Assembly (NCBI GenBank): GCA_964016885.1
Contig: OZ024747.1
Span: forward strand, 92,380,001-92,444,000
From: Eledone cirrhosa
Lineage: Eukaryota
Direction: 5' to 3'
DNA: 64,000 nt
Shown: in pieces, positions 1 to 63,790 of the stretch
How positions within the stretch are numbered: the stretch's first letter is position 1
Layout of the letters: every line of letters starts with the position of its first letter
Position numbers and translations under genes: made by a program
Notes under the pieces: model-generated
Databases searched by the model: none
What the model saw: the letters and a program-made list of their open reading frames with translations, nothing else
What the model was told of the DNA's origin: nothing

Positions 1-65
<65 letters not shown>

Positions 66-68
<3 letters not shown>

Positions 69-211
69 CAGGGCTTCCTGATGATTTCTCCCGAATGAAA
101 CAGGTCTAGTCCTGTAGAAGCCCTTTCTATATTAAATATTTATTTATACTCTACTATGTATTGAGTACCTTACTTACGGTGGTCAACCCCGATTGAACCC
201 CGGATAAACTT
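66..211 (+). mobile_element. Short microsatellite-embedded element: hammerhead plus ACTC/GAGT tail hairpin (Penelope-like/retrozyme-type, non-autonomous)
   Basis: Lies between (TG)n and (TA)n; hammerhead at 70-124; tail hairpin ACTC-TAC-TAT-GTA-TT-GAGT-ACC at 148-169; related copy at 233-390. Confidence 0.7.
70..124 (+). ncRNA. Type I hammerhead ribozyme
   Basis: Stem I AGGGCUUC/GAAGCCCU, core CUGAUGA, stem II UUC-UCCC-GAA, GAAA, stem III ACAGG/CCUGU, GUA cleavage triplet (after 116). Confidence 0.85.
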
Positions 212-232
212 ATATATATATGTGTGTCTGTG

Positions 233-390
233 TATCCCGGGTTCAATCGGGGTTGACCACTGTAAGAAAGGTACTCAATACATAGTAGAGTATATAATGT
301 TTAATACAGAAATGACAGTTGGCTGTTCTGATGATTTCTTTCGAATGAAACAGTTTTAATCCTGTAGAAGCCATTTCTATATTAAACAAT
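233..390. mobile_element. Second copy of the 66-211 element with the hammerhead segment inverted relative to the tail
   Basis: Tail hairpin on minus strand (270-291); hammerhead on plus strand (321-372: CUGAUGA..GAAACAG..CUGUA); 17-bp inverted repeat 298-314/372-388. Confidence 0.7.
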
Positions 391-2912: not shown

Positions 2913-2962
2913 AAGTTATTCTATTTCTAATTTCAAACCTGCTCACTGTTTCAAAACATACT

Positions 2963-3037
<75 letters not shown>

Positions 3038-3934
3038 CTAGCATTAAAGCCCGGCGCTGCTCGGGGTCATTAAGTTACCAAAGTTAGGTTGCACCACCCA
3101 TTTTATGGCAGCACTTTTTTGTCTGCCAGGCACTGGGTGAATGAATTGCAGACCTGGAAGCATGAGCTGCGCCAGCAGTGACAATTGTAGTTTCGCCTAT
3201 GGATATTATCTCTGTGCAAAAAAGTGTTGAAATTTATTGTTTCACAGTACTTGCGCAACACGCGCGTAGACGATGCCAGCCGAACAACAGAGCTGCGATG
3301 GAGTTGTTCTGCATGGTTGTCTGTGTGTTTTCTAAATTTAAGACAGTAGGGAGGGTTGTGATATGAGGGAGAGTTAGCTGTTGTTTCTAGCAGGTTTAGT
3401 GACCTCGTAGAGGATATGTGTTTTCTAAATTTAAGACAGTAGGGAGTGGTGTGATATGGGGGAGAGTTAGCTGCTGTTTCTAGCAGGTTTAGTGACCTCA
3501 TAGAAGATATGTTTTCTAAATTTAAGACAGTAGGGAGGGGTGTGATATGGGGGAGAGTTAGCTGCTGTTTCTAGCAGGTTTAGTAACCTCATAGAGGATA
3601 TGTGTTTTCTAAATATAAGACAGTAGGGAGTGGTGTGAACGGACAGTATCACCATCAAGCTTGGAAAGAGAAAGTAGCAGAAAGTATGAAGTTGTATAGA
3701 TTTTGAATGGTAGTAGAAAGAGTTAAGCAGTTTAAATGAGAGAGAAAAATCGTAAAATATTGAGTTTTATCTATTTTTTGCGTAATTGTGGGTGAAATTG
3801 AAAAAATTATCTGCGTCAAGACGCAATCGATACTATTTCGAATACTGAATTGTAAATTTCAATTGAAGAAATTCTATATCGTAGATTTCTATAACGAAGG
3901 AGCATGACCACACACTGAGCTTTATAGATTATGA
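3038..3934 (-). mobile_element. Non-autonomous Helitron with internal ~87-bp tandem repeats
   Basis: 5' TC at 3934; 3' CCCGAGCAGCGCCGGG hairpin then CTAG at 3038; A|T insertion site; internal tandem repeats at 3323-3636. Confidence 0.75.
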
Positions 3935-3999
3935 TACATTATATATATATACACATTATATATATATATACATTATATACATTATATATATGTACATTA

Positions 4000-4175
4000 T
4001 GGCAGTATAGGTAGAGGGTCGGATGCCATGCTTTCCAGCATAGTTACGTCCCTTTACAATCTGAGTTCAAATCCCGCCGAGGTTAACTTTGCCTTTCATC
4101 CTTACGGGGTCGATAAAATAAAGTACCAGTAATGCACTGGGTAATTGCTGGCCTTGTGCCTAAAGTAGAAACAAT
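4000..4175 (+). mobile_element. SINE family A
   Basis: Near-identical to 1215-1397. Confidence 0.85.
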
Positions 4176-4525
4176 TATATATATATATACATTATATATA
4201 TATACATTATATATATATATATATATACATTATATATATATTTTCATTATATATACATATATATATATACATATATATATACATTATATATATATACATT
4301 ATATATATACATTTTATATATATACATATATATATATATATACATTATATATATATACATTATATATATATACATTATATATATATACATTTTATATATA
4401 TACATATATATATATATATATACATTATATATATATACATTATATATATATATATATTATTATATATATACGTGGAGAAGTAAAATACAGGAGAACAGAC
4501 CGTTAAAACATGTTTATTTAAAATA

Positions 4526-4565
4526 GCACCTACGTACCTTTCGCCCGAATGGGCTTCTCAAGGGC
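4526..4565 (-). ncRNA. Minimal hammerhead variant (U3-A8 core), slightly degenerate
   Basis: Minus strand GCCC-UUGAGAA-GCCC-AUUC-GGGC-GAAA-GGUACG-UA-GGUGC, followed by AATAAA; in a TA-flanked element. Confidence 0.55.
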
Positions 4566-4649
4566 ATAAATAACTACATGTATCACCTATCCCTCCTTTT
4601 CTCTCTCTCGATACGTAAATATTCTATATATATATATATATATATATAC

Positions 4650-4777
4650 ACTAATATATATGATGAAACACAAATACCAACACATCTGTATTTATATTGC
4701 AAAAGAAAATTTAGTCATTTTCTTTTGCAATATAAATACAGATGTGTTGGTATTTGTGTTTCATCATATATATTAGT
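4650..4777. repeat. Perfect fold-back (61-bp arms, 6-nt loop) followed by a GCTC/GAGC tail hairpin
   Basis: Arms 4650-4710 and 4717-4777; tail GCTC-AGAAA-loop-TTTCT-TC-GAGC at 4787-4812; flanked by (TA)n. Confidence 0.85.
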
Positions 4778-4866
4778 TTATACACGGCTCAGAAATATTT
4801 CTTTCTTCGAGCTAATTCCATTGTAAAAGAATTCATTACACTTAATAATATATATATACATACATA

Positions 4867-5435
4867 CTAGCCGAATTACCTGCGCCTTGCTGCGTTTCAC
4901 ACATTTTGTTTTGGGGGGTTTTTTTAAAGAAAATGATGATTGATTTGAAATCAGTGATATAATTTATGGAGAAAAACTCTGCATTTCAATATTAAGCAAA
5001 AATTGGAAAACATTATATTTTGTAATATATCAAATCAAAATTACATTATTAAATCTTATTCTTAATTTGTTTCTTGTAAATAATTTTTTTTTAAATATCA
5101 ATTCAAAACTTTTGTGAATAGGCATCATATCTTGTCATTTACCTATGGTTTAAATTTCATATAAATCGAAGGAGAAAATTTTTCAGCGGGGGTTTGTGCC
5201 TCCGGGGAACCCTAATAGGGGGTTTAACCACATTAGGGTGTCTTAATATTATTAAAATTTGCTGAAATTTTGTGAATAGGCATCATATACTGTCATTTAT
5301 TTATGGTTTAAATTTTATATAAATCAAAGGGAAAAAATTTTCAGCAGGGGTTTTGGGCCCCCGGGGAATCCTTTGATTAAAATGAAATATACTTATCCAA
5401 GTACCCTGGGCAATGTAGTTTCAGAATATATATGG
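4867..5435 (-). mobile_element. Probable non-autonomous Helitron fragment
   Basis: CTAG terminus at 4867 with nearby GC-rich hairpin; internal ~160-bp duplication (about 5110-5215 and 5268-5375). Confidence 0.5.
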
Positions 5436-5499
<64 letters not shown>

Positions 5500-5794
5500 C
5501 TCAGCTTAATACTCGTATTACTCTGTATAATAATCAGAACTCTCAACATAACACTCGGGATGCTCATCATAATCTATATTATAATAAAGGCGTTGTCTGT
5601 CTGTCCGTACATAATGTATAAGCCTTCTGGTTAATGACAGAATGTGAAGTGAAAATGGAAGGGACGGGATGGGGGACTGATACCATTTTAGAGTCAGATA
5701 AATTAACAAAGAATATATACATTAGTATGCTGTGTCTTGGCAAAAGGTAAAAGTATAGAATAATTCATATCAGACAAGTAAGTCGAGCACGAAG

Positions 5795-5971
5795 CAAATC
5801 TGCCAACCTCTAAAAACCCATGCGGGTAGTACCATGAAAAAAAAGTGCCCCAAAAATGGGGAGATTTTACATAATGAAAACTATACCTATTTTCACAAGA
5901 GAAGACTTCTCTCACCCATCCCAAAGTGGATGGGAGATCTCCTCGTCGGAAGGAGAGAGTTGACAGGTCTG
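5795..5971 (+). mobile_element. hAT-like MITE
   Basis: TIRs CAGACCTGCCAAC/GTTGRCAGGTCTG; further copies at 7721-7916, 8592-8785 and a partial at 8123-8200. Confidence 0.7.
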
Positions 5972-6587
5972 AGAAGAAATAAACGTACTATTACCTTTCA
6001 GTCTGTTGTAGTAGAACCAACCCACCAAAAAGCTTTTTGACACTAATAGTAGTTTTGACTCGATTATTAATTATTTTGGTCTGGAAACAGGCATTGATAA
6101 CCTTCCATAGAAAATGATATGTTCGTTGTGGGTGGTAGGAAGACCTTAAGAAATCTAGTACCTTTGTCAGTGATAAATGATTATTAAATGCCATGGCTAA
6201 TCTTGATTACATGAAATCAACACAAAGTTAAATTTTCTTTCTTGTGAAAACTTTTGTTACAAATTTATGAAGTTTCAAATTCGAAAATCTGTTTATGTTC
6301 CCAACACGTAACATAAAGATAATTTTCGTTTCGTTTCTTAACTGCTATACCTAAGTCGTGTTCGAAATGTCACAGCTTTGCTATTTACCTTTCTATCAGT
6401 CCATTATTTATTTTAGGTTGTGCCCTAAAGTTTGAGATTAAAATAGTAACTATAGTTTCTTACCCAAGTATTAATCCCGGTGAGTTCAGAAGATGGAAAA
6501 ACTGGCTGTTACAACATTCAAATATTAATAGTAAAGTAAAACGTTTTTAACCAAGAAACAAATTCGGATCCTGACCTCTATGCACCG

Positions 6588-7134
6588 ATAAAGTTTATCC
6601 TGTCTATTGCACACTGTTAGCCATACATAAAGTTTATCCTGTGTATTGCACACTGTTAGCCATACATAAACTTTATCCTGTGTATTGCACACTGTTAGCC
6701 ATACATAAAGTTTATCCTGTGTATTGCACACTGTTAGCCATACATAAAGTTTATCCTGTTTATTACACACTGTTAGCCATACATAAAGTTTATCCTGTGT
6801 ATTGCACACTTAGCCATACATAAAGTTTATCCTGTGTATTACACACTGTTAGCCATACATAAAGTTTATCCTGTTTATTACACACTGTTAGCCATACATA
6901 AAGTTTATCCTGTTTATTACACACTGTTAGCCATACATAAAGTTTATCCTGTTTATTACACACTGTTAGCCATACATAAAGTTTATCCTGTGTATTGCAC
7001 ACTGTTAGCCATACATAAAGTTTATCCTGTTTATTACACACTGTTAGCCATACATAAAGTTTATCCTGTGTATTGCACACTGTTAGCCATACATAAAGTT
7101 TATCCTGTTTATTGCACACTTAGCCATACATAAA
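6588..7134. repeat. 39-bp minisatellite, about 14 units
   Basis: Unit TAAAGTTTATCCTGTGTATTGCACACTGTTAGCCATACA. Confidence 0.95.
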
Positions 7135-7720
7135 GAAAGCTGGCATATTGAATGACATTCGTTTCACATTAAAATTTGTTTTATTATTTAGTTGAAGTAA
7201 TGGTCAGAGTTCAAGCTTTTTACATCATTATCCATTCGTGGGATAGATGACATCTGGAGGAGTATGTAAGAAAAGGCGCTGCAAGACATTACAACCAAAC
7301 CTTCCGCTAATTCTCGCTACCGACTTTTAAAATGATTAAACATACGGAATAATCTGTTACTGAATACATTGTTGTTGCAAACAAGTCAAGATTGTCACGT
7401 CTAGAATATTGGTTTACCGACACATTCCTGTCAGATATATTTCTATCAACATGTTTGAGCACCAGCAGGTGACGAAAGAACCTACAGATCTGTAGGTAGC
7501 AAGCTCGTAAAAAAATCTCTGCAAAGGTAAGTGATTTACGAAGTCTTCCAAAATACTCAAGCAAACTCTTCCACACAACAACTACATATAAACCAGAAAT
7601 ATACACAATTTAACGGGGAAAATAACATTAACACTGATAGCAACAACAACAACAAAAACAAGATGTACCACTACATAACACTGATAGTAACAACAAAACA
7701 AAAACAAGATGTACCACTAC

Positions 7721-12662: not shown

Positions 12663-12750
12663 GGGGGGGGGGGTTGTGTGTGTGTACGAATGAAATAGTA
12701 TTAGTCCTGTAGAAGTCATTTCTATATAAAATAAAGATATATATATATAT

Positions 12751-13150
12751 ATATTATCAAGAAAACGAAAAATCAGTGATACATCTGGACTTAGTTTATT
12801 TCGTCTTACAAATGTTTCGCCGGCATGTAGCTCGAGTCATGGTCCTTGTATGGATCTGGCTGATTCTACTTCTGCGGGTTCTTTCAGACACGGGTGTTAT
12901 GTCCGGATAAAATTTGCTCCGGACATAACACCCGTGTCTGAAAGAACCCGCAGAAGTAGAATCAGCCAGATCCATACAAGGACCATGACTCGAGCTACAT
13001 GCCGGCGAAACATTTGTAAGACGAAATAAACTAAGTCCAGATGCATCACTGATTTTTCGTTTTCTTGATAATATTTACACTCTACTCTGATGAATATCGA
13101 GTGCTAAGTTTGGCATACCGCCTACGGAAGTACCTTAGCTACCACTATAC

Positions 13151-20676: not shown

Positions 20677-21853
20677 CTAGCAGATTTACCCGGCGTTGCT
20701 CGGGGTTTGAAATTATGCTAAGAATATACAGCTAGGAAGTAAAAGAAGAACATTATTTGTCCCCAACCTGTCAAAATAAGCAGAAGTCTTCAATAATTAA
20801 TGCAAACGAATATTTAGTGCAATCTTTGTATGCATAAAACTATGTTGATAATGAAGGAAAACACTGAACAGGATGTTGTTATACAAATGATTAAAGACAA
20901 TACACGTTGCAAATCTGTAAAAAAAACAGGCAGTTTTGCTAAAGTACAAAAACTTGTAATGAAATCAGAGTTGTATACAAACAAAAAAATAATGAGAGTA
21001 GAATAAGAGAAAATCTATTCTTTGAGAGCATCCTTTGCTGTGTATGGTTAAATTTTGAACTTATAATCCAAAATATCCTGCATGACATATTCATTGGTAT
21101 GTTTTGTAATGAGTAAGGTGAAGTCAAGGCAAAACTGTAATAAGGTTTTTTGTTAACACTAAAGCATAGACGATATTCTTTGTTTTTCTTTTCGGAACAA
21201 ACGCAAAGAGATTATCTCGACTGCCAACTCGTGAGCAGGCAACGTAGAATTGTCCGTGCGAAAAGCAAGGTTTATCCAAGTGAATTCCAGCGACGGACAG
21301 AGTTTGACCTTGCGACTTATTTATGGACATCACAAAGGCAACACGAAGGGGAAATTGGGTTCGGCGAAAGTAGAAGGGAGTATCCACGCCTGATGTAGTC
21401 AGGCTAATTTTTGTTATTATCACATCCTCGCCTTTTCCACATCCGGATAGAATGGTAGCGTCAATACTAAGTGGAGACAGTTTTTTAACCACAAGGCGTG
21501 TACCATTGCATAGTTTTGGAGGAGTGATATTTCTCAGCAAAATAACTGGTGTTCCCTCTTTCAGGAGGTAAACCAATTTCTGAAAAGTTGGTTATCTCCC
21601 TTTTTTATAAGGATTGTCAATAAAGTTTGTTATCTCCCTTACATTAATTTTTCTACCGATAATTTTGATATCGATTTTTTATTGCTCAACATGGGTCGAT
21701 ATGAAAAATGTTTGTGATGTGACAATCTTAGCGACCTGTGCAACGTGCACAGAAAATTTGGTCAAATTCAGTTGGTAATTGTGAAAGCCTTATGCATGTA
21801 AAGTTGTACACAGACACACACACATCCTCGCTTTTATATTAATTATATAAAGA
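20677..21853 (-). mobile_element. Non-autonomous Helitron carrying the helicase C-terminus
   Basis: 5' TC at 21853; 3' CCCGAGCAACGCCGGG hairpin plus CTAG at 20677. Confidence 0.85.
21124..21576 (-). pseudogene. Helitron RepHel PIF1-like helicase C-terminal fragment
   Basis: LLRNITPPKLCNGTRL, RTQFPLRVAFVMSINKSQGQTL, FSHGQFYVACSRV. Confidence 0.9.
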
Positions 21854-26336: not shown

Positions 26337-26788
26337 GCGTGTGTGTGTGTACACAAATCCTTTCTGCACAGTGAACGGAAATGAAATTTTATTGATACGC
26401 AATTGTTCAACTCTAGGTTGTAGTAGAAGTTACCCATTTAATGTAACATGCAGCAATGTCATCCATCTCCTATATTTGCCTACACGTATACCTAATGTTC
26501 TTATAAATTACATATTTTCTTTAATAAAAACATATTAACATTTCAAATAATTAACTATAAAGTAATCTTTTTTATTTTCAGAATTGAAATGTGTTTAAAA
26601 TCTGTGTGGTAAAGATCCAGCTTCATTTGTCACTATATACCAGTTATGTCTAGATGTTGAGAAGTTAGACATTTTCCTGTTAATATACTAAGTCAATGTC
26701 TACAGAATCCAGGGTTACATTAACTAGACCTCATAATATGCTATAAATAAACCTCGTGATATGCTATCAACGAAACAAGCATCTCGAA

Positions 26789-28699
26789 ATGGGTGATCAA
26801 TCGTTCAAATGCGAACACCATGAACCAAATTATGACCAAACACCAGAAACCAATTTACCTGTCGTGGGTGGCGATTTACCAAATAATTTGCAGGATTATC
26901 AACTCAAAAAGTATTTTCCACATGAATGGAAGAGTAATAATAACTGGGAGGTCAATAACTGCGTTGGTTTTCTGTTAAGGCTAAACAGAGATGCTGTCCA
27001 AAAACAAAATATTTACAGCACATGTAGGAAACCAATGACCAGAAATGATACAAGGTCTATTAATATGGTATACAAAGAAAATAGCCAGGACGCTATGCAT
27101 CACCATCCCAATTACACGAGGGGCATCACTCCTAATATTCGACAGCAGAAACGTATTCCTTGCTCCTTAGAAAAAGAAAATGTTAAGGATTATTGTGAAG
27201 ATAAAAAACTTAGAAATTATGATTATAGTTACAAAAATGATATCGTTAAGGATAGCACTTGTAATTTTAATATTGATGATAACATTGTTAATGATAAAAT
27301 TTGCAATGATAATCATACAAGTCAAAATACTGTTAGTGATAATAGTGATAATAATAGTGTAGCCCAAGATGATAAAGTAGCAAGTGAAAATATCATTGAT
27401 GATAACACAGATAGAAATAGTATCTTTAACGACAACCTTATTAAAAATAATAGAAATGAAGATAATATAGGGACAGAATATGATTATCAATACAAAAAAC
27501 AGATTAAATCTCGCTTATCAATGACTAATAGAAAACACTTTCTAACCAGTGAAAAGATCGCAAATCAGCCTGCAATGTTATGCCTTAATTCCCGATACAA
27601 AATCAATATAAATGAAATACCAAGATTAAATATACCAGAGTGTGTTAATGATCCCGACAGAATGGATTTTGAAAATGTAGACTCATCTCTATTGCCTAAA
27701 ACAACCTTTGACTTCTCACTATCGAAACGTATTCAACGAAACAATCTTGACCTTTTCTTAGAAACAGTGGAATTTTCGGAGAGAAAAGAAATCTCTAATA
27801 TTATTCGACCTAACATGTTCTCCTCTCAGACTAGAAATATACAATCAACAAGTTCTTTTAAAACATCTTTTCGTTTACACAGGACAAAACGTCAGATTAT
27901 GCCTGGAAATGAAAACATGAACAAAGATTTAGATCAATATTCAGACAGAAAAGGTAACAGTTTACTGATTTCTAACAACACTCCAGAAAACGAATCTTTG
28001 CCAGATTGGCGACATTCTTATAAGTTCGACTCAAAAACGAATTCAGAGTTTTTAAAATGTCGAACTATAAATATTAACGATAAACAAACCGAAACGAATG
28101 TTCAAGAATGCTCTGAAATGTCTTCTGAAAAATTACCTCACCCAAAACAAAAGCAAAAAACTGTGAAAAAACATAGGTATAAACGGTCTCCATTTCAAGA
28201 AAATCGCAATCTCATTATGGGTTATCCAAAGGATTTAGTTCCTGAGACGAGAGAACATCGTGTAAAAATACCAGGAAATAATGTGTCTAATGGCAACCAT
28301 TCTGTAGTAATAATACCAGTTTGTTCAGTTCTAAGTGACGAAGAATATTCTAGTGAATCAGACGTTAATAATGACACCGAGAATGAGTTAGTTATGAACC
28401 GAAACTGTTCAAATGAGTCACTTAAGTCAGCAGTATCACTTCAATCAAAGTTCACACCACAATTGAAGAAACAAGCAAGTCCTGTAACTTACGAAAATGT
28501 GACAACTTCAAATGATAATTTTGGAATATATTCAGAGACTAACACATTTCTTAGTAAGTTTAAAAATGACGGAATTGAAAGTAGAATATCAAAGAGAGGA
28601 TTGATTTCATCGAGACAAACAACGGAGTTTTTGACACGATTCCTAAAATTTGAAGAAAGCCGTAAGCTGCTTAAAGAGAAAAATGAATTTTACGTCTAA
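26789..28699 (+). CDS. Uncharacterised Asn/Asp/Ser-rich protein (636 aa, single large exon)
   Basis: 1.9-kb open frame in non-repetitive AT-rich DNA; first in-frame ATG at 26789; candidate splice acceptor TTTTATTTTCAG ending at 26581; no recognisable domain. Confidence 0.7.
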   Translation: MGDQSFKCEHHEPNYDQTPETNLPVVGGDLPNNLQDYQLKKYFPHEWKSNNNWEVNNCVGFLLRLNRDAVQKQNIYSTCRKPMTRNDTRSINMVYKENSQDAMHHHPNYTRGITPNIRQQKRIPCSLEKENVKDYCEDKKLRNYDYSYKNDIVKDSTCNFNIDDNIVNDKICNDNHTSQNTVSDNSDNNSVAQDDKVASENIIDDNTDRNSIFNDNLIKNNRNEDNIGTEYDYQYKKQIKSRLSMTNRKHFLTSEKIANQPAMLCLNSRYKININEIPRLNIPECVNDPDRMDFENVDSSLLPKTTFDFSLSKRIQRNNLDLFLETVEFSERKEISNIIRPNMFSSQTRNIQSTSSFKTSFRLHRTKRQIMPGNENMNKDLDQYSDRKGNSLLISNNTPENESLPDWRHSYKFDSKTNSEFLKCRTININDKQTETNVQECSEMSSEKLPHPKQKQKTVKKHRYKRSPFQENRNLIMGYPKDLVPETREHRVKIPGNNVSNGNHSVVIIPVCSVLSDEEYSSESDVNNDTENELVMNRNCSNESLKSAVSLQSKFTPQLKKQASPVTYENVTTSNDNFGIYSETNTFLSKFKNDGIESRISKRGLISSRQTTEFLTRFLKFEESRKLLKEKNEFYV

Positions 28700-41270: not shown

Positions 41271-42125
41271 TAATACACACAGTATTTTGTACATATATAT
41301 AAAAAGCACATACTATTTAAGAAACAGAAAGAGGTGAGAGAATTCTGGCCTGATATGGCCGGTTTAAATGCTAAAGTGTTAAGGTACCATAATGAGACTT
41401 ATGTATGTTTATTATATATAAACATATTGTATATGTTTTCATATAAGCCTCTATTATGTTTATTATAATCTAGCTTTGTTTTCCATTGAAGATGGAACAA
41501 ACCTGTTGTACATCCATATAACAAAACCAAGAAGGAAACTCAGCCAGTGAGCAGCTGAAAACACTCTTTGTATTTCAAAGAGTCAATTTAGTGTTCAATA
41601 GAGTCCCATTCCAATAATACATTTAATACAGGATTTAATACATGCAAGCATGAAAATTAATTACATAAAATATAATTGAGAATCATCATCATCATCGTTT
41701 AACATCCATCTTCCACGCTAGCATGGGTTAGACGGTTTTGTTCCATTTGATGTGGGATTGGTCAGGAGACCGTGTCTCGCTCATACGGAAGTGTCTCTGG
41801 CAGGTTTGTTTTCTACGGCTGGATGTCCTTTCTAACACCAACCACTTTACAGTGTGGACTGGGTGCTTTTTGTTGTGTCACCGACACGGTGGATGGAAAT
41901 GGGAGGATGGGGTAGGGTGTGTGGGGTGGGGTGTATATTGGGTTAAGAGGTGCCTATTGACTGTAGATTTGTATGCAAGGGAAGGCGGGTCTTCTGTACA
42001 ACTACATAGCGTCAAAGATCTCGATCCAGTGACATTGTCTTAGAGAGGTGTAAGTGAGCAAGGTCACCTTGTCTCAGGTTTTTCTTGGTCTGCAATAGAG
42101 ATACAATAACAAATTTCACTATTAC

Positions 42126-42265
42126 CTTTAATTCGAATTTTATCAGGCAAAACTTCAGTTGACCATTCATCACTACCATCACAGCAATCACATATACCAT
42201 CTTGTACATGACTTGACCATGTAAACTGAGGTTTCAATCCTTCCAGCTGAAAAGTGCAATAAAAC
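42126..42265 (-). CDS. PRKCSH-like gene, coding exon 3 (second LDLa-like repeat)
   Basis: cag|FYC..SSHVQDGICDCCDGSDEW..|gtaata; 140 nt. Confidence 0.92.
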
Positions 42266-42518
42266 CTGTAGAAGAAAGTAAAACAATCTAAAGCAGGAAA
42301 TTCTTCATTAAGTTTTATATAAAAATAATCATCAACATCATTGTGATCTTTCTCGATCTGAGATGTTCTCCTACCTACTTCAATTGTTTGTCTTTTGTCT
42401 TCTAACTCTATTAGCTCTCAGGTGACTATGGAGAGCTAGATTTGATTGGAAAATTTGGTGGCATTCTCAGTTCAGAATAAGAGATGATCTTTGAAAGTTA
42501 TTTGTTAATATCCTTTAA

Positions 42519-42937
42519 CCCTTTAGCATTTACATTATTCTATATTTATTATTATATTTTCACAGTGAAGGCTTTACCTCACATAATATCAAAACTATGA
42601 GATTTTGATGTTATTTATTTTGAGAACAATACCTTAACATCAGTATGAGTGACAGGTTATGACTGGTTTGAACAGAAAGAGGTGAGAGAATTCCGGCCAG
42701 ATACAGCCGGTTTAAATGCTAAAGGGTTAAACCAGCTGTATCTGGCCAGAATTCTTTCATCTCTTTCTGTTCAAACTGATCATAACCAGCCGGTCATATT
42801 GATGTTGAGGTATTGTTCTCCAAATAAATAATATCAAAATCTTGTAGATTCGATAATATGTGAGATAATTATGTAAGATAAAGCCTTTACTGTGAAAATA
42901 CAATAGTTAAATATAGAGTAATGTAAATGTTAAAGGG
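42519..42937. mobile_element. Two adjacent, oppositely oriented piggyBac-like MITEs
   Basis: TIR CCCTTTAGCATTT with TTAA flanks; copies at 42519-42726 and 42731-42937. Confidence 0.8.
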
Positions 42938-43394
42938 TTAATCATGGCTAATCCAACATAGATGGTGTCTGATGGATCATTGCCTTAATGTTAGTCATTC
43001 CTGCTTGTTCTAAGACAGAGAGATATTGGTCTTCTTTTGCTCCCAATGAATACCAACAACAGAATGAACAAAGTTTTCATTCTTGAGACCATTCAAACTG
43101 TTTAAAGTGATCTTTGTCATCCATTAGGTGTAGGAAAAGGCCAAGAAGCACTAAAAGCTGCTACATTTGTTTTGTTTTCTGATCTGACCAAGGCCTTTGA
43201 CAGTCTATGCTGGGACCCACTATGGAAAATACTTGAGAAACTTGGCATCCCACCAAAATTTCTGGCAAGCTCTCACTCCCTTCATAACAATATGAAGTGT
43301 TTAATGCTTTCAAATGGATTAGCATCACCGTAGATTGAAGTCAAAAGTACAATTCAAATATTTTACAAGTAATGTTATAACAATACTATTATCA

Positions 43395-44189
43395 CCTTGA
43401 TCAGCTGGACCGACCAGTCTGTCGGCCGTCCATTCGGCACCGCTGGTCACAGCACGCCGTCCATTCTTCTCTGGATCGTGCTTTCCTCATCCATGTAGTC
43501 CCAATCGTATTCCTAAAATCGTAACTCCACCATCGTGGAGGCCTTCCGCGTGGTCATTTCTGCTCGCGCGGGTACCACTCGGCAACTGCACGGGTCCACC
43601 GATTATCGGTGAACCGGGCGATGTTTCCAGCCCATCTGAACTTGCTGTGCATATATTCCGTGATGACGTCCCTCACGCCGGACTTCTGTCTGATGACTTC
43701 GCTCCTGATGTGCTCTTTCAACGAGATTCCTAACATTGATCTCTCCATGGCTCTTTGAGCCATTACCAGCCTCTGCTCTTCTCTCTTCATTGTAGCCCAA
43801 GTTTCACTGCCATATAACATTGCAGGTAAAACTGTGCTATTGAAGAGGTTGGCGCGGGTGGTCTTGTCCAACCTCCCCTTGAACACATCCCTTATGCCGT
43901 TGAAGGCCTTCCATCCGGCCCTTACTCTCTGCAAGATCTCCCTCTCAATGTCTCGGAGCATGTTCACTTCTTGTCCTAGGTAGACGTATTCCTCCACCTC
44001 CTCTATTTCTTCACCGCCAACCACCATTCGACCTGTTGGTACATTGTCGGACCGCATGAACTTCGTTTTCATGCGGTTTATCTTGAGGCCTACTGCAGAG
44101 CTTTTGATGTCGAGCTCCGTCAGCATGGTCTGAAGCTGATCTGTGGTTTCAGCGATGAGTACGATGTCATCAGCGAAACGGAGGTGGGT
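43395..44189 (-). mobile_element. 5'-truncated RTE-clade LINE (relatively young, GC-rich)
   Basis: HLRFADDIVL..GLKINRMKTKFM..EYVYLGQ..LPAMLYGSETW..FRWAGNIAR; adjacent to an older RT relic (DLTKAFD, about 43180). Confidence 0.9.
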
Positions 44190-44585
44190 ACTATTATATA
44201 AGTTGATATGTATTTTTCAGCTAGTTCAATAAAAGACACTACCATAAGAAAAATATGCATATAACTTTGAATTTGTGATACTTTCTGTCAAAGTGTTTTT
44301 ATCAACTCTTTTGTTACTGTATTTCTAAAGAAATATACTACCTAAGATTTTTAAACCATTTTGAAAATAATTAAGATTTTGGAAGGACTTTGTAATATAA
44401 TGAACTTACTTATTATTATGCTTGTTTGCAGCATCACTTAACAAATGTTCATATATAAAATTATCATGGGAGGCTTTTAGATAAATATAAACACTTCAAA
44501 AATAACTTAGTATTGTAGAGGCAGGAGCAGTTTTATGTGGCTTGATGTCAAAAAAGTTAAAGACACAAATATTCGGAATGGTTAA

Positions 44586-45049: not shown

Positions 45050-45141
45050 TTTGATAAATGACAAGCTGAAGTACCAGGTTCATCAGAGTTATCATTACAA
45101 TCACAGAAATCATCATTTAAATATTGGTATGGAATTTGTTG
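45050..45141 (-). CDS. PRKCSH-like gene, coding exon 2 (first LDLa-like repeat)
   Basis: cag|QQIPYQYLNDDFCDCNDNSDEPGTSAC..|gtaagt; 92 nt. Confidence 0.92.
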
Positions 45142-45215
45142 CTGAAATTAAAGTCCAAAATATTAATCTTTTTGTAATGGCAAATCATTCCAATAAACTT
45201 GAAGACTAGAACAAA

Positions 45216-45642
45216 TAGTATATCTTATATAGTTAAGAAATATAACATATCTTATATAGTATATCTTATATAGTTAAGAAATATAACATATCTTATATAG
45301 TATATCTTATATAGTTAAGAAATATAACATATCTTATATAGTATATCTTATATAGTTAAGAAATATAACATATCTTATATAGTATATCTTATATAGTTAA
45401 GAAATATAACATATCTTATATAGTATATCTTATATAGTTAAGAAATATAACATATCTTATATAGTATATCTTATATAGTTAAGAAATATAACATATCTTA
45501 TATAGTATATCTTATATAGTTAAGAAATATAACATATCTTATATAGTATATATTATATAGTTAAGAAATATAACATATCTTATATAGTATATCTTATATA
45601 GTTAAGAAATATAACATATCTTATTTAGTTAAGAAATATAAC
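45216..45642. repeat. 41-bp AT-rich minisatellite, about 10 units
   Basis: Unit TATAACATATCTTATATAGTATATCTTATATAGTTAAGAAA. Confidence 0.95.
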
Positions 45643-46475
45643 AATAAAGTGGTAAGAAACTGTCAGGAGAGCTGAACAGCAGAAGGTTTTCAGAGAAGAA
45701 ACCACCCCTCAAGTGAGTGTTTCAGCCCTTAACTTCTGAAACTTCAAGATTAGAACATATAGCACATCATATATAGTTAAGAAATATAACAATATATTAT
45801 AAAATAAATCTAAATACAAAGAAACCTATAAATCATCATCATCATCACGATTTGACGTCCATCTTTCCACACTAGCATGGGTAGGATGGGCTATCCCTTT
45901 GTGAGAGATCTGGTCGGAGGACTGCGCTCACTCAAACAGAACTGATTTTGGCTTGGTTTCTATGGCTGGATGCCCTTCTTAACGCCAACCACATTTAAAG
46001 GGTGGACTAGGTGCTTTTTGTCGTGACACCTACACGACCACTTTACAGTGTGGGCTGGGTGCTTTTTGTCGTGGGACTAATAATTAAATCTGTGGAAGAT
46101 TTAGAGAAGAAATTCCAAATGTGGAAACAAAACCTAGAATTGAAAAGGCTCCAGAGTAAACTTAATAAAGACTAAAATCTTATTAAGTAGGAAAGAAGAT
46201 ATGCCTAGGTCTGGGTAGTGTTTGGGCTATGCCCTACAGACTAATACTTGTTCAGCAACTTTTCTATTGAAACTACCAGTCATGGATGTCAAGTAGGTTT
46301 TATTAAGTTTTATACATACCACATCTGACTAGCTTTGAAAAGGTCAGATTGCCTCCAAATAATGTGTAAACATTGGATCTTATATTCACTAAAATACATA
46401 AAACCTAGTTCAAATAAGTTTTAGTTGAGAAAAGTTGTTGATCAGTAAAACAGAAAGAAAGAATTCATCATTTAA

Positions 46476-46696
46476 CCCTTTAGCATTTACATTATACTAT
46501 ATATAGTACTGTATTTTTGTGGTAAGGGGTTTATCTTACACAATTATCTCACATAATATCGAATCTGTAAAATTTTGATAGTATCTATTTTGAAAACAAT
46601 ATCTTAAAGTCAGTATAAGCAGCCAGTTAGAGCCAGTTTAAACAAAAAGAGGTGAGAGAATTCTGGTTGGATACAGCCAGTTTAAATGCTAAAGAG
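46476..46696. mobile_element. piggyBac-like MITE
   Basis: TTAA flanks and CCCTTTAGCATTT TIR; other copies at 47154-47343, 48290-48510, 49798-50018, 50344-50562, 51028-51235, 51713-51920 and 61331-61512. Confidence 0.8.
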
Positions 46697-47419
46697 TTAA
46701 AACCTGTTTTCCTGCTAGTAAAGGTTGAATGGGTTGTCATAGACCAAGTCAATACTTACTCAAAGCCACTAACCTCTCAGATAGGCTGAGGACAGGGGAT
46801 GAGGGGGGTCTTGCTTACATACATTCCATACTCTACATGTGTATTTTATTATGGCACCAACACTGAAGTGGTTGCCATGTCTTTGACACAACTGTAGAAT
46901 TCTCTCAACATTTGGGCAAGTTTTCTACAGTTGGATGTATTTCCTATCACCAACCATTGTAAAGAGCTTACTGACTGAGTTTTATCATGCACCAACACAA
47001 GTGAGGTTGTCATGCCATTGATACAACTGATGACTTGCTCGACTTTGTTTTGCTATTATATAACAGAATTCAATAAAACAGGATGAAAGCATATGTTAGT
47101 TCCAGTTTATGTACAATACAAAGAAACACAGTTACACTTAATTACAAGTTTAACTCTTTAGCATTTGCATTACTCGATATATACTATTGTATTTTTGCAA
47201 TAAATATTATCTCACGTAATCTCACGTTATCTATAAGATTTTGATATTATTTATTTTGAAAACAATACTTTATCATTGCTGGTTTGAACAGAAAGAGGTG
47301 AGAGAATTCTGACTGGGTACAGCTAGTTTAAATAATGCTAAAACAGCCTTTTATTTCTTTTGTTATTTATGTAAGACACTGAGATGATGCACGATTGAGT
47401 TGACTGGCAATATACTATA

Positions 47420-47748: not shown

Positions 47749-48688
47749 AAAACCTGTCCATCAGTACCAGCACTGCAACACTAAAAGTAAACATGGTGAG
47801 AGACCAGAGGCTACAGTGTTTGGCAAACGAACAGAGAACTCTTCAGTCTGATAAAACCTATGACAACCTTTCTAGTACTGATGAAATGATAAAATGCACC
47901 TAGTACACCCTGTAAAGTGTTTGTGTTAGTGCCACAATGATATACACCCAATACACTCTGTAAGGTTTTTGGCATTAGGAATAGCATCTAACCATAGAAA
48001 ACATTCTAAATATTGAATGTATGAGCAAAATGAGGTTGTATCAACCTATCTGGTCTCAGATGCCAGCATGAAAAACACATATCATGATTTCATTCAGTGT
48101 GACCAAGAGGGTGAATAGGAAGGCAATAGATACATAAATATCAGGTTGAACTTTTGAAAGAAGCAAGGGTATGATGGAATAAATAGAGTGATTGAGGTGG
48201 GAGGTTTCGTTGTTTAGTTCCTTGTTAACCATTTTCAAACAGATCTCTGATTAAAGGTGTTCCCTTAGTCAATATAACATCTTATTTAACCCTTTAGCAT
48301 TTAAACCAGCCGTATGTGGCCAGAATTCTCTCACTTCTTTCTGTTCAAACCAGCTGTAACTAGTTGCTCATACTGATTTTAAGATATTGTTCTCAAAATA
48401 AATAATATCAAAATGTCATAGATTTGATATTATGTGAGATAATTATGTGAGGTACAGCCTTTACCATGAAAATATAGTAGTAAATATAGAGTAATGTGAG
48501 TGCTAAAGGGTTAAACATGTTGGCAGAGTAATGGATGGGAGACAGTGATAACAGGCTTATATCTGCTGATAAGAGAGAGTTGATGATGTATAGTAACGGA
48601 ACTGAACAATATACATACATGCATTAGAAAATGTGATGTACGTGAATGTGATGTGTTTTTTAATATTACAGAAGTTAAAGCAACTTAC

Positions 48689-49003
48689 CTTAGCATGTAG
48701 ACATTGAAACGTGTCGTTCTTTGTTGGAAGATAAAGGTGCATTTTATCGAGAAATACACCCCTTATTAAAGTTTTTGGGTTCTGTCTAGATTGCTGTATC
48801 CTTGCAACAACTAAGAAATCTGGCATTTCAGGCAATTGATCCTGTAATATTTCCTCTTTGACATGATGGTCTAATGAAAACGAGTCGCTATTTACTGCAT
48901 CTAGTTTGGTCATGGAATAGTAGAGGAACAGTATGTATAAACTAGCTGTCATCCCCAGCAGCAAGAGAAGAACCCGATATTTACTCCAAAATACTCTCTT
49001 CAT
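48689..49003 (-). CDS. PRKCSH/glucosidase II beta-like gene, coding exon 1 (signal-anchor, stem, start of Cys-rich region)
   Basis: MKRVFWSKYR-VLLLLLGMTASLYILFLYY..IRGV..HLY..FQCLHAK|gtaagt; in-frame stop upstream; acceptor before 49054; six exons splice to 1038 nt (345 aa). Confidence 0.88.
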
Positions 49004-52000
49004 AACTGTTTTTATTTAGTTATTTTTTCTGACTGCCTTCCCAACATAGTTCCACTGCAAGGAAGAATGACAGAAATATACACATGAAAACAAGATTACA
49101 CAAAAGAAAATACAGAGGCTCAAATACAGAAAGTTATTTTCAACATGCATGAGTGTCTGATGAGCATATAATTTGCTCATTCAGACTGTGAGAAATTGCA
49201 GCTAATATATCATATGCTGGGATGGTCCCTTAACCTCTGAGAGAGTTGTAAGGTTTCTGTATTTACATATGGCATTTCATTAAACGTGGCAGAGTCCATC
49301 TCCTCTCCAGGTCTAAATACAGCAGATTTCTTCTAGAAAAGGATAGAGAATGGAAGTGAGAAAGAGATATAGAGGAAGAATCAACACCAATACTAGACTG
49401 GTACATTTTTTATCAATCTTGAATAGAAGGAAGGCAAAGTTGACCTCAGCAGGATTTGAATTCAGAGAACAGAGAGCCAAAACAAATACCGCAAAGCATT
49501 CTATCCGACATTCTAACAACTCTGCTAATTTGCCACCTATATCATATACAAACTATTCACAAATACTCTCTATATAATAAGCTGCATGCAAACATGTGCA
49601 TAAAATTTAAGCAGAGTTGACAAAATAACTTTAACTCTTAATATCCTGTACTACATGAAATCATATTAAGAACACATTCTTGAAAAGTACAAAACAGCAC
49701 TATCATTGCATCACATTAAAAATTAAAGACTTTAATTTAGTTTGCTGTAAAATTTTACAATAATCTGTCCACTAGTAAATATATTATAAATTTTTAACCC
49801 TTTACCATTTTCGTTACTCTATATTGACTATTGTATTTTCACGGTAAAGTTTTTACCTCACTTAATTATCTCACATAATATCAAATCTATGAGATTTTGA
49901 TGTTATTCATTTTGAGAACAATACCTTAACATCAGTATGAGTAGCCAGTTACAACCGGTTTGGACAGAAAGAGGTGAGAGAATTCTGGCTGGATACAGCT
50001 AGTTTAAATGCTAAAGGGTTAAATTAGAGCCATTTTAAAAAAGTTTCTGCTAAATCATTACAGGATGTTAAGAGTTAATAATTGAAATAGCATTAGAGAA
50101 TGTTTCCAACATCATGATTGCACATTAATGTTATAAATATCTAAAAGAAAAGTAGTTGACTGCCAGAACTAAGGAAACACTATTTCCATTGGTCTTACCA
50201 TTACTGATACTTTCTGCTAGAAGTTGGCAGGATATGAACTCATAATTCACAGAACTAGATGGAATACCACAAAGCTTCTGGAATGGTATTTTAGTTATCA
50301 AGCCCATCCACCTCAAATATAGTATGCACCATTTGAGGTTTAACCCTTTAGCATTCACATTACTCTATATATACTATTGTATTTTCACAGTAAAGGCTTT
50401 ATCTCAAATAATTATGTCACATAATATCAAATCTATGAGATTTTTATATTATTTATTTTGAGAACAATACCATAACATCAGTATGAGTGGCCAGTTACAG
50501 CCAGTTTAAACAGAAAGATGAAATAATTCTGGCCGGATTTGGCCAGTTTAAATGCTAAAGGGTTAAACGTTTGGAGAAATGTATAAGGAAAAAGAAAAGC
50601 CATCATGTTTGAATATAACATTAACATTCCATTACTGAAAGATACTGCTTATGATTTTCAAACATGTTTTAGAATAATAAAAAATTTAGAGGAATTTAAT
50701 ACAATGAAATTATTGTGTATAGTAATATGACTGGCTCATTATGTTGGTGTTAAGAACATAACTTAAGAGAAGGCTCTTACAATAAATTATAATTGAAGGG
50801 TTAAATTTAAACATGAATACTTTAAAACAAATAGACTTTCATCATAGATCTTGGTGTGGGGTTTTTTTATGTGACTTAGTATCAAAAAGGTTTAAAAGGG
50901 CTTGATTCATCTTCAAATTAACTTGATAAATATGAAATCATAATATTCTACAAATAAGAAGCCTTTCTCATATGATTTTAAGAAAGAATATAAGAAACAA
51001 AGCACAGGTTTTTTTTTTTTCTTTTAACCCTTTAGCATTTAAACCGGCTGTATCTGGCCAGAATTCTCTCACCTCTTTCTGTTCAAACTGGCTGTAACCA
51101 GCTGCTCATACTTATGTTAAGGTATCGTTCTCAAAATAAATAATATCAAAATCTCATAGATTTGATATTATGTCAGGTAAAACCTTTACTATGAAAATAT
51201 AATAGTATATATAGAGTAATGTAAATGCTAAAGGGTTAACAAGATACAGAGGAACTTAAATCAAAAACAATTCTACTGTTAAATTTATCATACCATAATC
51301 TATAAATGTGAAGTGTGTGTGTGTGTGTTGATATTCTCTCTCTTTCACTTACTACCTCCGTCTCTCTCACTCTCCCCATCTCTCACTATTATAAGCAAAT
51401 AGGAGCCCACATGCTAGACACCGGAAATACAGAATAATACTAATAAATTATGCTAAAATTCACATTAGTATACTTTTACTTTTCATACAATAGCCTTATC
51501 TTCTTCACTTGTAAAATGTTTTAATTTCAAATAACAGAAGCATGGGATATGTTGTTGTTGTATAGCCTCAGGTCAACGGACATATATTTAAAGTAATTCC
51601 ATTCATGTCTCTCTCAAGATCTGCCCTTCTTTACCCCTTCTCCCTTTTCTCATTACTTAATTTTGTTTTTATCTTTCTTTTTCATACCTATGTAATCATC
51701 AATGGTGTTTAACCCTTTAGTATTTAAACCGCCCATATCCGGCTAGAATTCTCTCACCTCTTTCTGTTCAAACAGGCTGTAACCAACTGCTCATACTTAT
51801 GTTAAGGTATTGTTCTCAAAATAAATAATATCAAACTCTTGTAGATTCGATATTATGTGAGATAAAGTGTTTAGCATGAAAATACAATAGTATATATAGA
51901 GTAATGTGAATGATAAAGAGTTAAGCCAACTTTGTGTATATATGCAATATTTAATGAACACTTCTTACAAAATGAAAATATAGACATATAATATATACAA

Positions 52001-52164
52001 TACTTAATGTGTATCTAGTATATCCAGCCATTGTTAAAATATGCCTTTCCTTAAAAAGTGTAATTTGAGTGAGATTTAGCAGCCCATTTCTGTCAGGTTG
52101 CTCACTGCCTTACTGGCTTATATTTTAAGAATTTCTCTATATTTATATATATATATATATATAT

Positions 52165-52586
52165 ATAATATAAGATCAAAAGATGGTTAAAGGAGTTCCA
52201 TGTATTTTATTATGCGCATTTCAAAAACAAACATCATCATGCAATAATATTTGTGTTTTCATCAGATAAAACAGGAGAACATGATATGAAGGCTAAAAAC
52301 ACTTGTGGATAGTGCAGTTTTAAATCAACATATATGTTGATTTAAAACTGCACTATCCACAAGTGTTTTTAGCCTTCATATCATGTTCTCCTGTTTTATC
52401 TGATGAAAACACAAATATTATTGCATGATGATGTTTGTTTTTGAAATGCGCATAATAAAATACATGGAACTCCTTTAACCATCTTTTGATCTTATATTAT
52501 GTATACTCCAGTCCTACAAACTGTAGAGTGCTTCTTATCCGATATCTGCATTGCTTTATTGTACTACAATAAAACTCACCTCCTAC
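52165..52586 (+). mobile_element. Fold-back element: 336-bp perfect palindrome with hammerhead plus tail hairpin
   Basis: Arms 52165-52332 and 52333-52500; tail ACTC-CAGT..ACTG-TA-GAGTGCT at 52505-52532; (TA)n on both sides. Confidence 0.85.
52394..52460 (+). ncRNA. Type I hammerhead with long stem II and palindromic loop 3
   Basis: UUUUAU-CUGAUGA-[long hairpin]-GAAA-U-GCGC-AUA-AUAAAA; mirror copy on the minus strand at 52205-52271. Confidence 0.85.
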
Positions 52587-53059
52587 ATATATATATATAT
52601 ATATGTTGATGTTGCAATAGATCTGCAAATGAGGCTATTTGGGTATTGTACTTAGCAGCCTTTCTAAACCACTAATTAATGTAAAAGTATTTAGTTGCTA
52701 GACAAAAGGTTAGTAAATTCTATTATGCTGCTGTCCCCTTTCTTTATAATTACTATACAACATCTATGTCAGCTTGTCAATGTGTATACTGAAAACCATA
52801 ATACAATGACTCTACTGTTAAGGTGCTTCATAACAAGTCACTGGCTCATAAGTTCAGATTTTACTGTCTAGTGAGCAAAATATCTAACTCTACTTCATTC
52901 AGTTTGCCTAAGAAAAAAAAAAAGATTAGGCACTACTACTACTTCACAACTGAGTAATAAGAAGTAAGAAGGGCATCCAATTGTAAATACCACTGCTCCA
53001 ACAAATAACTATCTCACCCATGGAAACTGTAAAGAAAAAATATGGTTTAAAAAAATAAA

Positions 53060-53730
53060 ACAGAAAACTGTTACTAAAAACTTATGAATAGATTGCTGGT
53101 TTTCAAAACTGTTATTGAAAACAGATATAACAGCTTGCTGGTTTTCAAAACTGTTGCTAAAAACAGATATAAACAAATAGCTGGTTTTGGAAACTGTTGC
53201 TTAAAACAGATATAAACAAATAGCTAGTTTTGGAAACTGTTGCTTAGAACAGGTTGTTGGTTTGGGAAACTGTTACTAAAAACAGATATAAATGGATTGC
53301 TGGTTTTGGAAACTTGTTTAAAACAGATATATACACAGGTTGTTGTTTTGAGAAACTGTTGTTTAAAACAGATTGCTGCTTTGGAAACTGTTGCTTAAAA
53401 CAGGTTGTTGGTTTTGGAAACTGTTGCTTAGAACAGATATAAACAGATTGTTGGTTTTGGAAACGGTTGCTTAGAACAGATATAAACAGATTGTTGGTTT
53501 TGGAAACGGTTGCTTAGAACAGATATAAACAGATTGTTGGTTTTGGAAACGGTTGCTTAGAACAGATATAAACAGATTGTTGGTTTTGGAAACTGTTGCT
53601 TAGAACAGATATAAACAGATTGTTGGTTTTGGAAACTGTTGCTTAGAACAGATATAAACAGATTGTTGGTTTTGGAAACTGTTGCTTAAAACAGATATAA
53701 ACACTGGTAGTCTGGGAAACGGTTACTAAA
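53060..53730. repeat. 43-bp minisatellite
   Basis: Unit AAACTGTTGCTTAGAACAGATATAAACAGATTGTTGGTTTTGG. Confidence 0.9.
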
Positions 53731-54187
53731 CATGTGTTGTTGGGGAGGGAGAGTTGATCAAAAGAGGAAACGTGTAAAGATAATTATCAATAAACCATGT
53801 ATCAAAGATATATTCGATAGTTAAACCACTTCCACCGTCTCCCTTTAAATAGCTTTGAAGATTGAATCGAACTCGCTATATTACATTTACTCGTTTGATT
53901 ATATTACCTCACTGCCACTAAAGAGATGAGCATTATAGTCAACGTAAATCGGATTTCGAATCAGTACACACGTTTTCACTTTGGTTTAACTTAAAGGAGA
54001 AAGAACTACTGTGTGTGGGTATGTGTTTGTGTGTATACGAAAGCTGGTGATTTATTCCGTTGTTATTTAGTGTTTCTCGTTCCAGGTAAAAAGCTGGGTT
54101 TTTTTATACCTGAAGGCAGGTATCGAGAATCGATAGAGTGAAACAGATATAAATATATTAGGTAAAATATATTGATCAGAAGTCTAA

Positions 54188-62489: not shown

Positions 62490-62810
62490 ATCATCATCAT
62501 CATCATTTCATTTTACGTCCGCTTTTTCCCTGCTTGCAAGGGTGGGACAGGAACTGATTCTGGCTTGATTTCTATAGCTGGATGCCCTTCCTAACACCAA
62601 CCTCATTTACAGTGAGTGCTGGGTGCTTTTTTGCTGTGGCAGCTCAACGACCCCAGTCCCTATCATTTCATTTCTACAGCTGAGTAAACTGGAGCAATGT
62701 GAAATAAAGTGTCTTGCTCAAGGAAATAACACATCACCCAGTCTGAGAATTGAACTCACAACCTTTCGATTGCAAGGCCAATGCTCTAACCACTGAGCCA
62801 TGTGCCTTCA
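62490..62810 (-). mobile_element. SINE family B
   Basis: Near-identical to 40946-41270. Confidence 0.85.
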
Positions 62811-62821: not shown

Positions 62822-63009
62822 TAATAGTAAAACACTGGAGAGCACTCAGTCCATGGGACGAGTTTGGTAGAAGTAGTTCCACAACAGTTAGTTCACCATA
62901 CCAAGAACAAATGTTTCACCTTATGTGGATTCAGATCAAGCTGAGGATCCGCATAAGGTGAAACATTTGTTCTCGGTATGGTGAACTAACTGTTGTAGAA
63001 CTACTTCTA
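62822..63009 (-). mobile_element. Fold-back element with hammerhead plus tail hairpin
   Basis: Inverted arms spanning 62868-63009; CUGAGGA-UCC..GGU-GAAAC-AUUU-GUU at 62941-62971 (+); tail ACTC-GTCC-CAT-GGAC-T-GAGTGCT at 62841-62863 (-). Confidence 0.8.
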
Positions 63010-63023: not shown

Positions 63024-63790
63024 CTAGCAGAATGGCCTGGCGTTGCTCGGGCTTCTAAACATAGATTGGCATGTTTATCCCTCCTTTCTGAAACAGTACA
63101 GAGAAGTACGGAATATCTCGGCCTTGAGATGGTGTCTACATTTTGTGCTTAGGCAAAAAATTTTCCATTAAGATTTTTCAAAAGCATGTAATTGCGTTCC
63201 CTCTCTTTTTTGTTGTTGTTTTTGCTGCTGTTGGTGTGATAGCAGCCGTTGGTCGTACTACTAACACAGTCTCGTCCTTCTTCAGCCAATCGTGTATATC
63301 CCCTTCTGCCTCGTCTACCTAAACAATGATTGTAGCACTTCCTTGTACACAATGTTCCTTGTTCTTCCATGTAGGGTATATGCAAAGAGATTTGACTTGC
63401 TTCCAACTCTTGAGCAGCCAATGTATAGTTGTTCGTGTGAAAAACCTGACACTTCCAAAAGAAGACCAGCAACAGCTAGGGTCTGACCCTGGGATTTGTT
63501 GATAGACATTGCAAAGCTGACACGGTTCAGCGAATGGTTCTTTCGTTGTCTGTTTCAAGTGCTCTTCTGGTGGCAATACGTTCAGCATCTTGCGATCGTC
63601 GAATAGCAGATTCCACTGACGATTCCTTTGCCCGCCTAGTTCTTTTTCTTGCCGCTTTCACGGTATTTCGGCCAATGGAGTATCTCTTCCTTCGAGGCAT
63701 GACCTAAAAGCAGGACGAAGTACACTAAGACTAACTGATAGAGTAAGGAGTAAACTCGTCAGTGATGTATGTGATTTCCGAACCGTTGAC
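63024..63790 (-). mobile_element. Internally deleted Helitron (RepHel N-terminus next to helicase C-terminus)
   Basis: CTAG plus hairpin at 63024-63050; AMSINKSQGQTL..FSHEQLYIGCSRV at 63315-63512; MPRRKRYSIGR.. ORF at 63700-63527. Confidence 0.8.

Follow-up and report, generated by a model that had tools for sequence, protein, structure and literature searches.

The window, by which we mean the whole 64-kb stretch of DNA analysed (GC about 0.35), belongs to an AT- and microsatellite-rich genome of 3 Gb and contains a perfect palindrome at 52165-52500. The two arms of 168 nt each (52165-52332 and 52333-52500) meet without any loop, as a sequence-only reading of this DNA had claimed, and lengthen to 173 nt if one mismatch is allowed. 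The family to which they belong was numbered so that +1, the A of ATATGTTG, is position 52332 and +255 is position 52586. The short arm (52165..52332, minus strand) covers +1 to +168, has no tail and stops at an internal end point at +169..+174. The long arm (52332..52586, plus strand) corresponds to the end of a pLTR, its last 255 nt, from a Hydra-type Penelope-like element (PLE). Both start at +1 (A, 52332 on the plus strand) at a head-to-head junction (52329..52336), where they have 2 nt (AT) in common. Only the long arm bears a tail, of 86 nt (52501..52586, plus strand). It contains an 8-bp hairpin at about 52554-52572 and, from about 52505, a bulged, weakly folding hairpin (z -0.5), in agreement with the hairpin previously placed 4 nt beyond the arm. 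Palindrome and tail abut (TA)n on either side. The top-strand 3' end of the left target (52140..52164) would have primed the short tail-less cDNA, and the bottom-strand 3' end of the right target (52587..52604) the tail-bearing one. No other piece of this PLE family was found elsewhere in the window.

A loopless inverted repeat might be a fold-back artefact of assembly or sequencing, and no contig or RAD read crossing the locus itself was found. Against this, the flanks are not mirror images and the right one is single-copy, the ends of the insertion are element-specific, short-read contigs span the palindrome centres of other family copies, and the same architecture is found again genome-wide. 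The chance of an artefact is practically negligible. The exact centre of the palindrome occurs at 170 loci (exact genome-wide count), and a search of the same genome gave 640 candidates, 40 of which were scored.

The window holds other short fold-backs. One, unrelated in sequence, lies head to head in (TA)n at 12748-13148. Its arms, each about 160 nt long, are 97.6% alike and only one of them carries a tail (about 70 nt), the same short/long-end plan as in the PLE palindrome. Others, with 84-95% arm identity, lie at about 2750-2965, 4645-4782, 124-312 and 62868-63009; of these, the fold-back near 2800 has CTTACA and then (TA)n at its end, like the tail of the PLE family. Among the window's short fold-backs listed, the PLE palindrome has the most similar arms (99.4% vs 84-98%). 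Its description as the cleanest member holds to that extent, but identical copies are common elsewhere in the genome, since 9 of the 40 scored candidates, the window copy counted, are identical across all 243 nt. The youth proposed for the insertion is supported. The locus is real but ordinary: it is a frequent product of a new PLE family of a known kind.

Each arm contains a type I hammerhead ribozyme, at 52393..52461 on the plus strand and at 52204..52272 on the minus strand, the latter being sense in the host pre-mRNA. The minus copy had been announced at 52205-52271; it is indeed present on that strand, with a span of 52272-52204. In the plus copy, stem I pairs 52393-52399 with 52455-52461 (7 bp), and the core comprises CUGAUGA (52400-52406), a 36-nt stem II of 15 bp and GAAA (52443-52446), followed by UGCGCA and then UA; the triplet is AUA and the predicted cut falls after 52454. 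A CUGANGA / GAAA / UH core with stems I to III is thus present, as in type I hammerheads. Helix III, the palindromic AUGCGCAU, has 2 bp in the monomer and would have 8 bp between two molecules (-12.5 kcal/mol), and co-folding of two molecules led to a predicted dimer of the double-hammerhead form. An Rfam search returned no hammerhead match at gathering or at E<=10; its miRNA-like matches were set aside as generic hairpin matches below gathering. CTGATGA and TGCGCA are both kept in 109 of the 119 retrieved family copies. In an alignment of 26 hand-chosen rows out of 60 distinct variants, two diverged families included, 97.4% of cells pair, which supports stems I and II, and 9 pairs changed on both sides compared with 2.1 in shuffles. 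Pattern, folding and covariation therefore bear out the hammerhead with palindromic stem-loop 3, on which Rfam is silent. That it is encoded on both strands is true, but any palindrome gives this, and each transcript carries one sense ribozyme only. Diverged hammerheads at two other loci (L074:2529-2596 and L163:4088-4155) have an identical stem I and core and an entirely different stem II; they probably belong to sister PLE families.

Like the PLE hammerheads described by Cervera and de la Pena (2014, PMC4209133), this ribozyme is of type I and dimer-dependent, with a palindromic helix III. It differs from those described there by its 15-bp stem II and by the base of that stem, which is A-U and not G-C. 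Pairs of PLE hammerheads on opposite strands, 100-700 bp apart, have also been reported (PMC4209133).

Two exons on the minus strand belong to a PRKCSH-like (glucosidase II beta-like) gene. The first lies at 48689..49056, with a start codon at about 49003 and an acceptor at about 49056, and the second at about 42110-42267. PF12999 gives a weak E of 0.02 at 48689-49056 and an E of 2.9e-8, just below cut-off, at 42112-42297. A contig of 1,667 nt (run X4, kind unrecorded) equals 48689-49056 exactly and then continues for 50 nt, which were not placed anywhere within 48600-53050. Splicing to an exon further upstream would produce such a break of the match at the exon edge. A candidate for a first, non-coding exon lies at 53909..53960 (minus strand) and borders a CpG-richer zone; its donor would be GAG/GTAAT at about 53909. 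The palindrome would thus be located in a 5'-UTR intron of the PRKCSH-like gene, a position proposed earlier and supported by the exon-bounded contig.

The computed energy of the full hairpin is -289 kcal/mol, compared with -41.5 kcal/mol for the ribozyme dimer, in favour of the earlier proposal that the hairpin would mask the ribozyme. The antisense arm is made first in the host pre-mRNA, so the one sense ribozyme would already enter a duplex during its transcription. In these folding models the single sense ribozyme of the host transcript is predicted to be both masked and without a dimer partner, and cleavage of the host RNA by it is unlikely. The end of the tail (52573-52582, minus strand) reads as a consensus splice donor, GAG/GTGAGT, in the host direction at about 52578, so that the 5' intron may contain a cryptic donor there. 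The host introns also hold a cluster of MITE-like repeats, each about 230 bp long and bounded by TTAACCCTTTA, in both orientations (42515-42941, 46471-46701, 48280-48518, 49790-50028, 50337-50568, 51023-51239 and 51707-51927); judged from their sequence, they are an additional source of intronic dsRNA.

The remainder of the window includes minisatellites at 53085-53746 (43 bp), 45092-45706 (41 bp) and 6510-7252 (39 bp), and an open frame of 650 codons at 26747-28696 (plus strand). We take 43557-44216 (minus strand) to be a LINE RT fragment, and 21127-21591 and 63318-63554 (both minus strand) to be PIF1-helicase-like fragments of Helitron type. A tRNA-like match at 62739-62802 (minus strand), barely above the Rfam cut-off, is probably the head of a SINE.

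The identity of the palindrome as part of a PLE and its copy number had been left out of the earlier reading. Longer family copies lead to a locus, L031, in which an ORF (2615-5014) stands between two pLTRs (1128-2539 and 4861-6271); the long arm of the window is 99.6% identical to this open-frame copy. The ORF is a single frame of 800 aa with YRDD present. It has no Pfam match, and Pfam and PDB sequence searches gave it no name. Its predicted structure (pLDDT 81.5) has reverse transcriptases, many of them TERT, as best fold matches. Residues 678-771 contain a GIY-YIG-like LIY...YFG and, in the model, a strand/helix layout that matches such an endonuclease; the GIY-YIG Pfam profile matches, weakly, 1 of 34 aligned proteins (E 0.012). 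The ORF further carries DKT (HSDKTN), a CxCX5C linker (CNCRIKNKCP), CxxC (CNLCLNE) and CxH (CLH), and reads RWT at the RWK position, where 19 of 33 homologues have RWK. By eye, the stretch that separates the two motifs of its putative EN core holds one Cys and no CxxC, and CCHH is absent. The 33 homologues, at 30-38% identity, carry the Hydra motifs in 19 to 31 cases depending on the motif. A pLTR or partial tandem, an inverted truncated copy and a one-sided tail were all observed in the family, whose unit measures 3.73 kb, some 1.25 kb of it 3' UTR. The motif RCTCC...GAGYGC occurs after +173 and, in the tandem parent, after +262; both sites fold weakly. Near family copies lie pieces of ORFs from other PLE-like families (L033:387-1187, L034:1060-2819 and L035:5223-5930), which look RT or GIY-YIG-like by eye; their closeness suggests common (TA)n targets.

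These features recall the Hydra clade of C-terminal EN+ PLEs (Craig et al. 2021, PMC8557442), which includes Hydra-1_Obim. As described for that clade, the family has DKT, the CxCX5C linker, and CxxC and CxH around the EN C-terminus, a canonical hammerhead near the 3' end, a (TA)n target, and an inverted 5'-truncated copy, known too for Penelope-13_HM. It differs from that description by RWT in place of RWK, by a tail of 86 nt compared with 30-40 nt, and by a unit of about 3.7 kb, longer than the clade's tendency (<3 kb) because of the 3' UTR. Its hammerhead sequence is not that given for the cephalopod member Hydra-1_Obim, and the minimal palindromic product is dominant here, unlike in the clade as portrayed in PMC8557442. 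Placed by its motifs, the window palindrome is a terminal piece of a PLE of Hydra-clade character.

Exact counts gave 10,703 tail-end 27-mers, 6,378 arms with the +1 27-mer and 1,610 head-to-head junctions at +1 whose spacer measures 0-30 nt over the whole genome, and 58 junctions in a control zone of equal width at about +110..+133. The architecture was read from the first 100 of the 10,703 exact tail-end matches, on contig C1. An inverted partner is adjacent to 80 of these 100 tails, 2 are in tandem, and for 18 no partner was detected. Among the 80 inverted partners, 69 end at +160..176, 7 at +255 (rows with two tailed arms, some loci being counted twice), 3 elsewhere and 1 beyond the retrieved sequence. 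Both outer ends are fixed, at +169..174 and +255, and both lie in (TA)n: TATATA occurs within 20 nt after the tail in 95/100 and a TA-rich flank borders the tail-less arm in 65/69. The bases after the tail show, by eye, no evident difference between short and long copies. A non-autonomous palindromic master, MITE- or SINE-like and copied whole, would explain the high copy number and the fixed size. It is extremely unlikely given the heterogeneous centres, with many spacer types among the 50 junctions listed, and the short/long-end rule, which persists in arms up to 3.7 kb.

The 5' reach of the two arms was compared in the 69 pairs. The tail-less arm is longer by more than 25 nt in 24, the tail arm is longer in 8, and the two agree within 25 nt in 37; both start at the same point in 23. 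Six pairs have no sequence in common, for instance +205..255 joined to +1..174. Where the starts nearly coincide, the tail-less arm leads at 12 of 18 junctions, 4 being level and 2 opposite, and it leads in 11 of 15 further loci; away from +1 this lead is mostly 13-24 nt. These data bear on the cDNA snap-back put forward in the sequence-only reading. A single tail-primed cDNA, or an antisense RNA, might snap back and be resolved by the endonuclease at the TA-like +169..174. This idea is in print (PMC3846280, PMC8557442), the sequence at +160..174 is (TA)n-like, and the window copy alone is compatible with it. It cannot, however, yield tail-less arms with extra 5' sequence (24/69) or non-overlapping arms (6/69), and the sign of the offset is opposite to its prediction. 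Since an arm may hold sequence that is absent from its would-be template, the fold-back of a single cDNA does not account for the family, and we regard this route as very unlikely. Snap-back thus fails as the whole mechanism, and may still act at the centre as the fold-back of an internally primed cDNA.

A hybrid scheme would build on such a fold-back: of two primed cDNAs, the internal one would fold back, copy itself to about +165 and switch to the short tail cDNA. It fits the 13-24 nt lead of the tail-less arm at microhomologies, the identical arms, and the 10 of 100 tail arms whose start falls in +141..180, the region of the second primer; self-priming of PLEs at such junction palindromes has also been proposed (PMC3846280). 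It is at odds with the loopless overlaps of 4 nt (18 of the 50 junctions listed) and 2 nt (4 of the 50, the type of the window copy), which have no stable 3' hairpin, and with the favourable intermolecular pairing of ATAT (computed at -1.4 to -1.8 kcal/mol), and it leaves the pairs with a longer tail arm unexplained. We therefore hold it rather unlikely.

Arm starts are concentrated at +1: the interval -3..+3 contains the starts of 24/100 arms with a tail and of 26/69 arms without one, compared with at most 5 and 3, respectively, in any other 7-nt interval. Among the 6,378 +1 arms, 2,275 run on into an upstream pLTR, and the base at -1 is G in 1,246 and A in 321, although the genome is AT-rich. 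The sequence TTCATAT around +1 resembles an initiator. A parental SNP as source of the G was rejected, the parent base at -1 being C in 34/34 continuing arms. In the sampled G arms, the partner arm also supplies the G, by microhomology, in at least 4 of 14, and slippage fits 1 of 14. Extra G residues have been taken as copied caps in L1 and SVA (PMC2912911), and the pLTR of Penelope holds an internal promoter (PMC2377424). From the pile-up of starts and the extra G, +1 is probably a capped transcription start. A second preferred 5' end is seen at about -3474, roughly one unit length upstream, where arms of four loci (L070, L091, L149 and L165) start right after the preceding tail.

We considered whether ribozyme-cut RNA could be the main template, an idea prompted by three loci of the sample with starts at about +122..124. 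We rejected it, because just 58 junctions genome-wide lie in that zone and about 7 of the 50 listed junctions lie at the cut, most of them next to microhomologies. The inserted arms include the cut site, so the template RNA was uncut, and arm starts show no peak at that site among the 50 junctions listed. Both observations agree with what is reported of cleavage for other elements: it is dispensable in vitro for the PLE studied in PMC11167929, and PLE hammerhead cleavage is weak (PMC4209133). As far as the sequences tell, the ribozyme, whose self-cleavage is predicted, is a passenger in the palindrome.

In each arm the antisense strand continues a 3' end of the (TA)n target, an arrangement like that described for twin priming in L1. 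We therefore favour, with a probability of about 70%, the reading that the window palindrome arose recently, when twin priming with run-off at +1 inserted a short piece, the last 255 nt of the PLE. The two cut ends of the (TA)n site would each start a cDNA on a single RNA, at one of two fixed internal points and in an order that we can only infer. The short end overlaps UAUAUUAUGUAUA, which is able to pair with a (TA)n primer and may do so in this step. The two cDNAs would then run off the probably capped RNA start at +1 and be joined there. The centre would close by annealing of the self-complementary ATAT or AT cDNA ends, which would also provide for second-strand synthesis. A PLE protein studied in vitro nicks both target strands, extends each of them and initiates at two internal sites bounding the tail (PMC11167929); that element is from a different clade and has a tail of 30-40 nt, compared with 86 nt here. 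Arms of the same locus agree in 634 of 660 diagnostic cells, compared with 397 expected (44 pairs), and have 14 private variants in common. This concordance suggests one template and is equally expected from fold-back, a single source locus or gene conversion. Likewise, the offsets of 13-24 nt suit hairpin loops as well as one enzyme behind another. Counter to twin priming, the tail arm is the longer one in 8 of 69 pairs, two tailed arms occur in 7 rows, and 18 of 100 tails have no detected partner. Tandem pieces upstream of +1 indicate further templates, either read-through or circular RNA.

As in LINE-1 twin priming (PMC2912911), both target ends would prime on one RNA, the cDNA ends would anneal via microhomology, and an extra G is read as the copied cap. 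Twin priming of LINE-1 is described there as occasional, with a variable internal site and non-overlapping arms, unlike the present family, which would be mostly twin-primed at two fixed sites and whose arms overlap to form perfect palindromes. With Penelope and the Adineta vaga PLEs (PMC3846280, PMC2377424) the family shares a head-to-head inverted copy, junction palindromes, a one-armed tail and an internal pLTR promoter. It departs from the accounts in those papers in that the ORF is absent from the window copy and that the family data need two primings, whereas self-priming was proposed there. The window copy also resembles metazoan non-LTR retrozymes (bioRxiv 10.64898/2026.07.22.740005) in being short, non-coding and PLE-derived with a type I hammerhead. 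Unlike the retrozymes presented in that preprint, it has no head-to-tail tandem monomers, consists of a single head-to-head pair, and is a direct fragment of an autonomous family. Inverted tailed PLE copies, junction palindromes and opposite-strand hammerhead pairs are already in print (PMC8557442, PMC3846280, PMC4209133). Twin priming or cap run-off for PLEs was not found in the literature searched, older reviews being outside its scope.

The origin of the tandem and inverted structures of PLEs and of their one-sided tail is named as an open question in PMC8557442, and the later insertion steps are described as unvalidated in PMC11167929. The family offers sharp, countable predictions on this mechanism, and a minimal substrate for the existing type of assay: an RNA some 290 nt long, a (TA)n target and the open-frame protein. 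We give roughly even odds to the wider proposal that PLEs integrate by built-in twin priming, in which one RNP would prime both target ends at two fixed internal signals on one RNA and the cDNA ends would mutually prime their second strands. If so, both signals would also be found no further than 255 nt from the capped 5' end of the transcript, so that perfect ribozyme palindromes would be mass-produced and would preserve a record of where the element's transcription starts and of its cap; a single scheme would then explain the inverted copy, the tail and the synthesis of the second strand. For the host, about 1,600 such junctions could put long dsRNA into its transcripts, with possible effects on editing or silencing.
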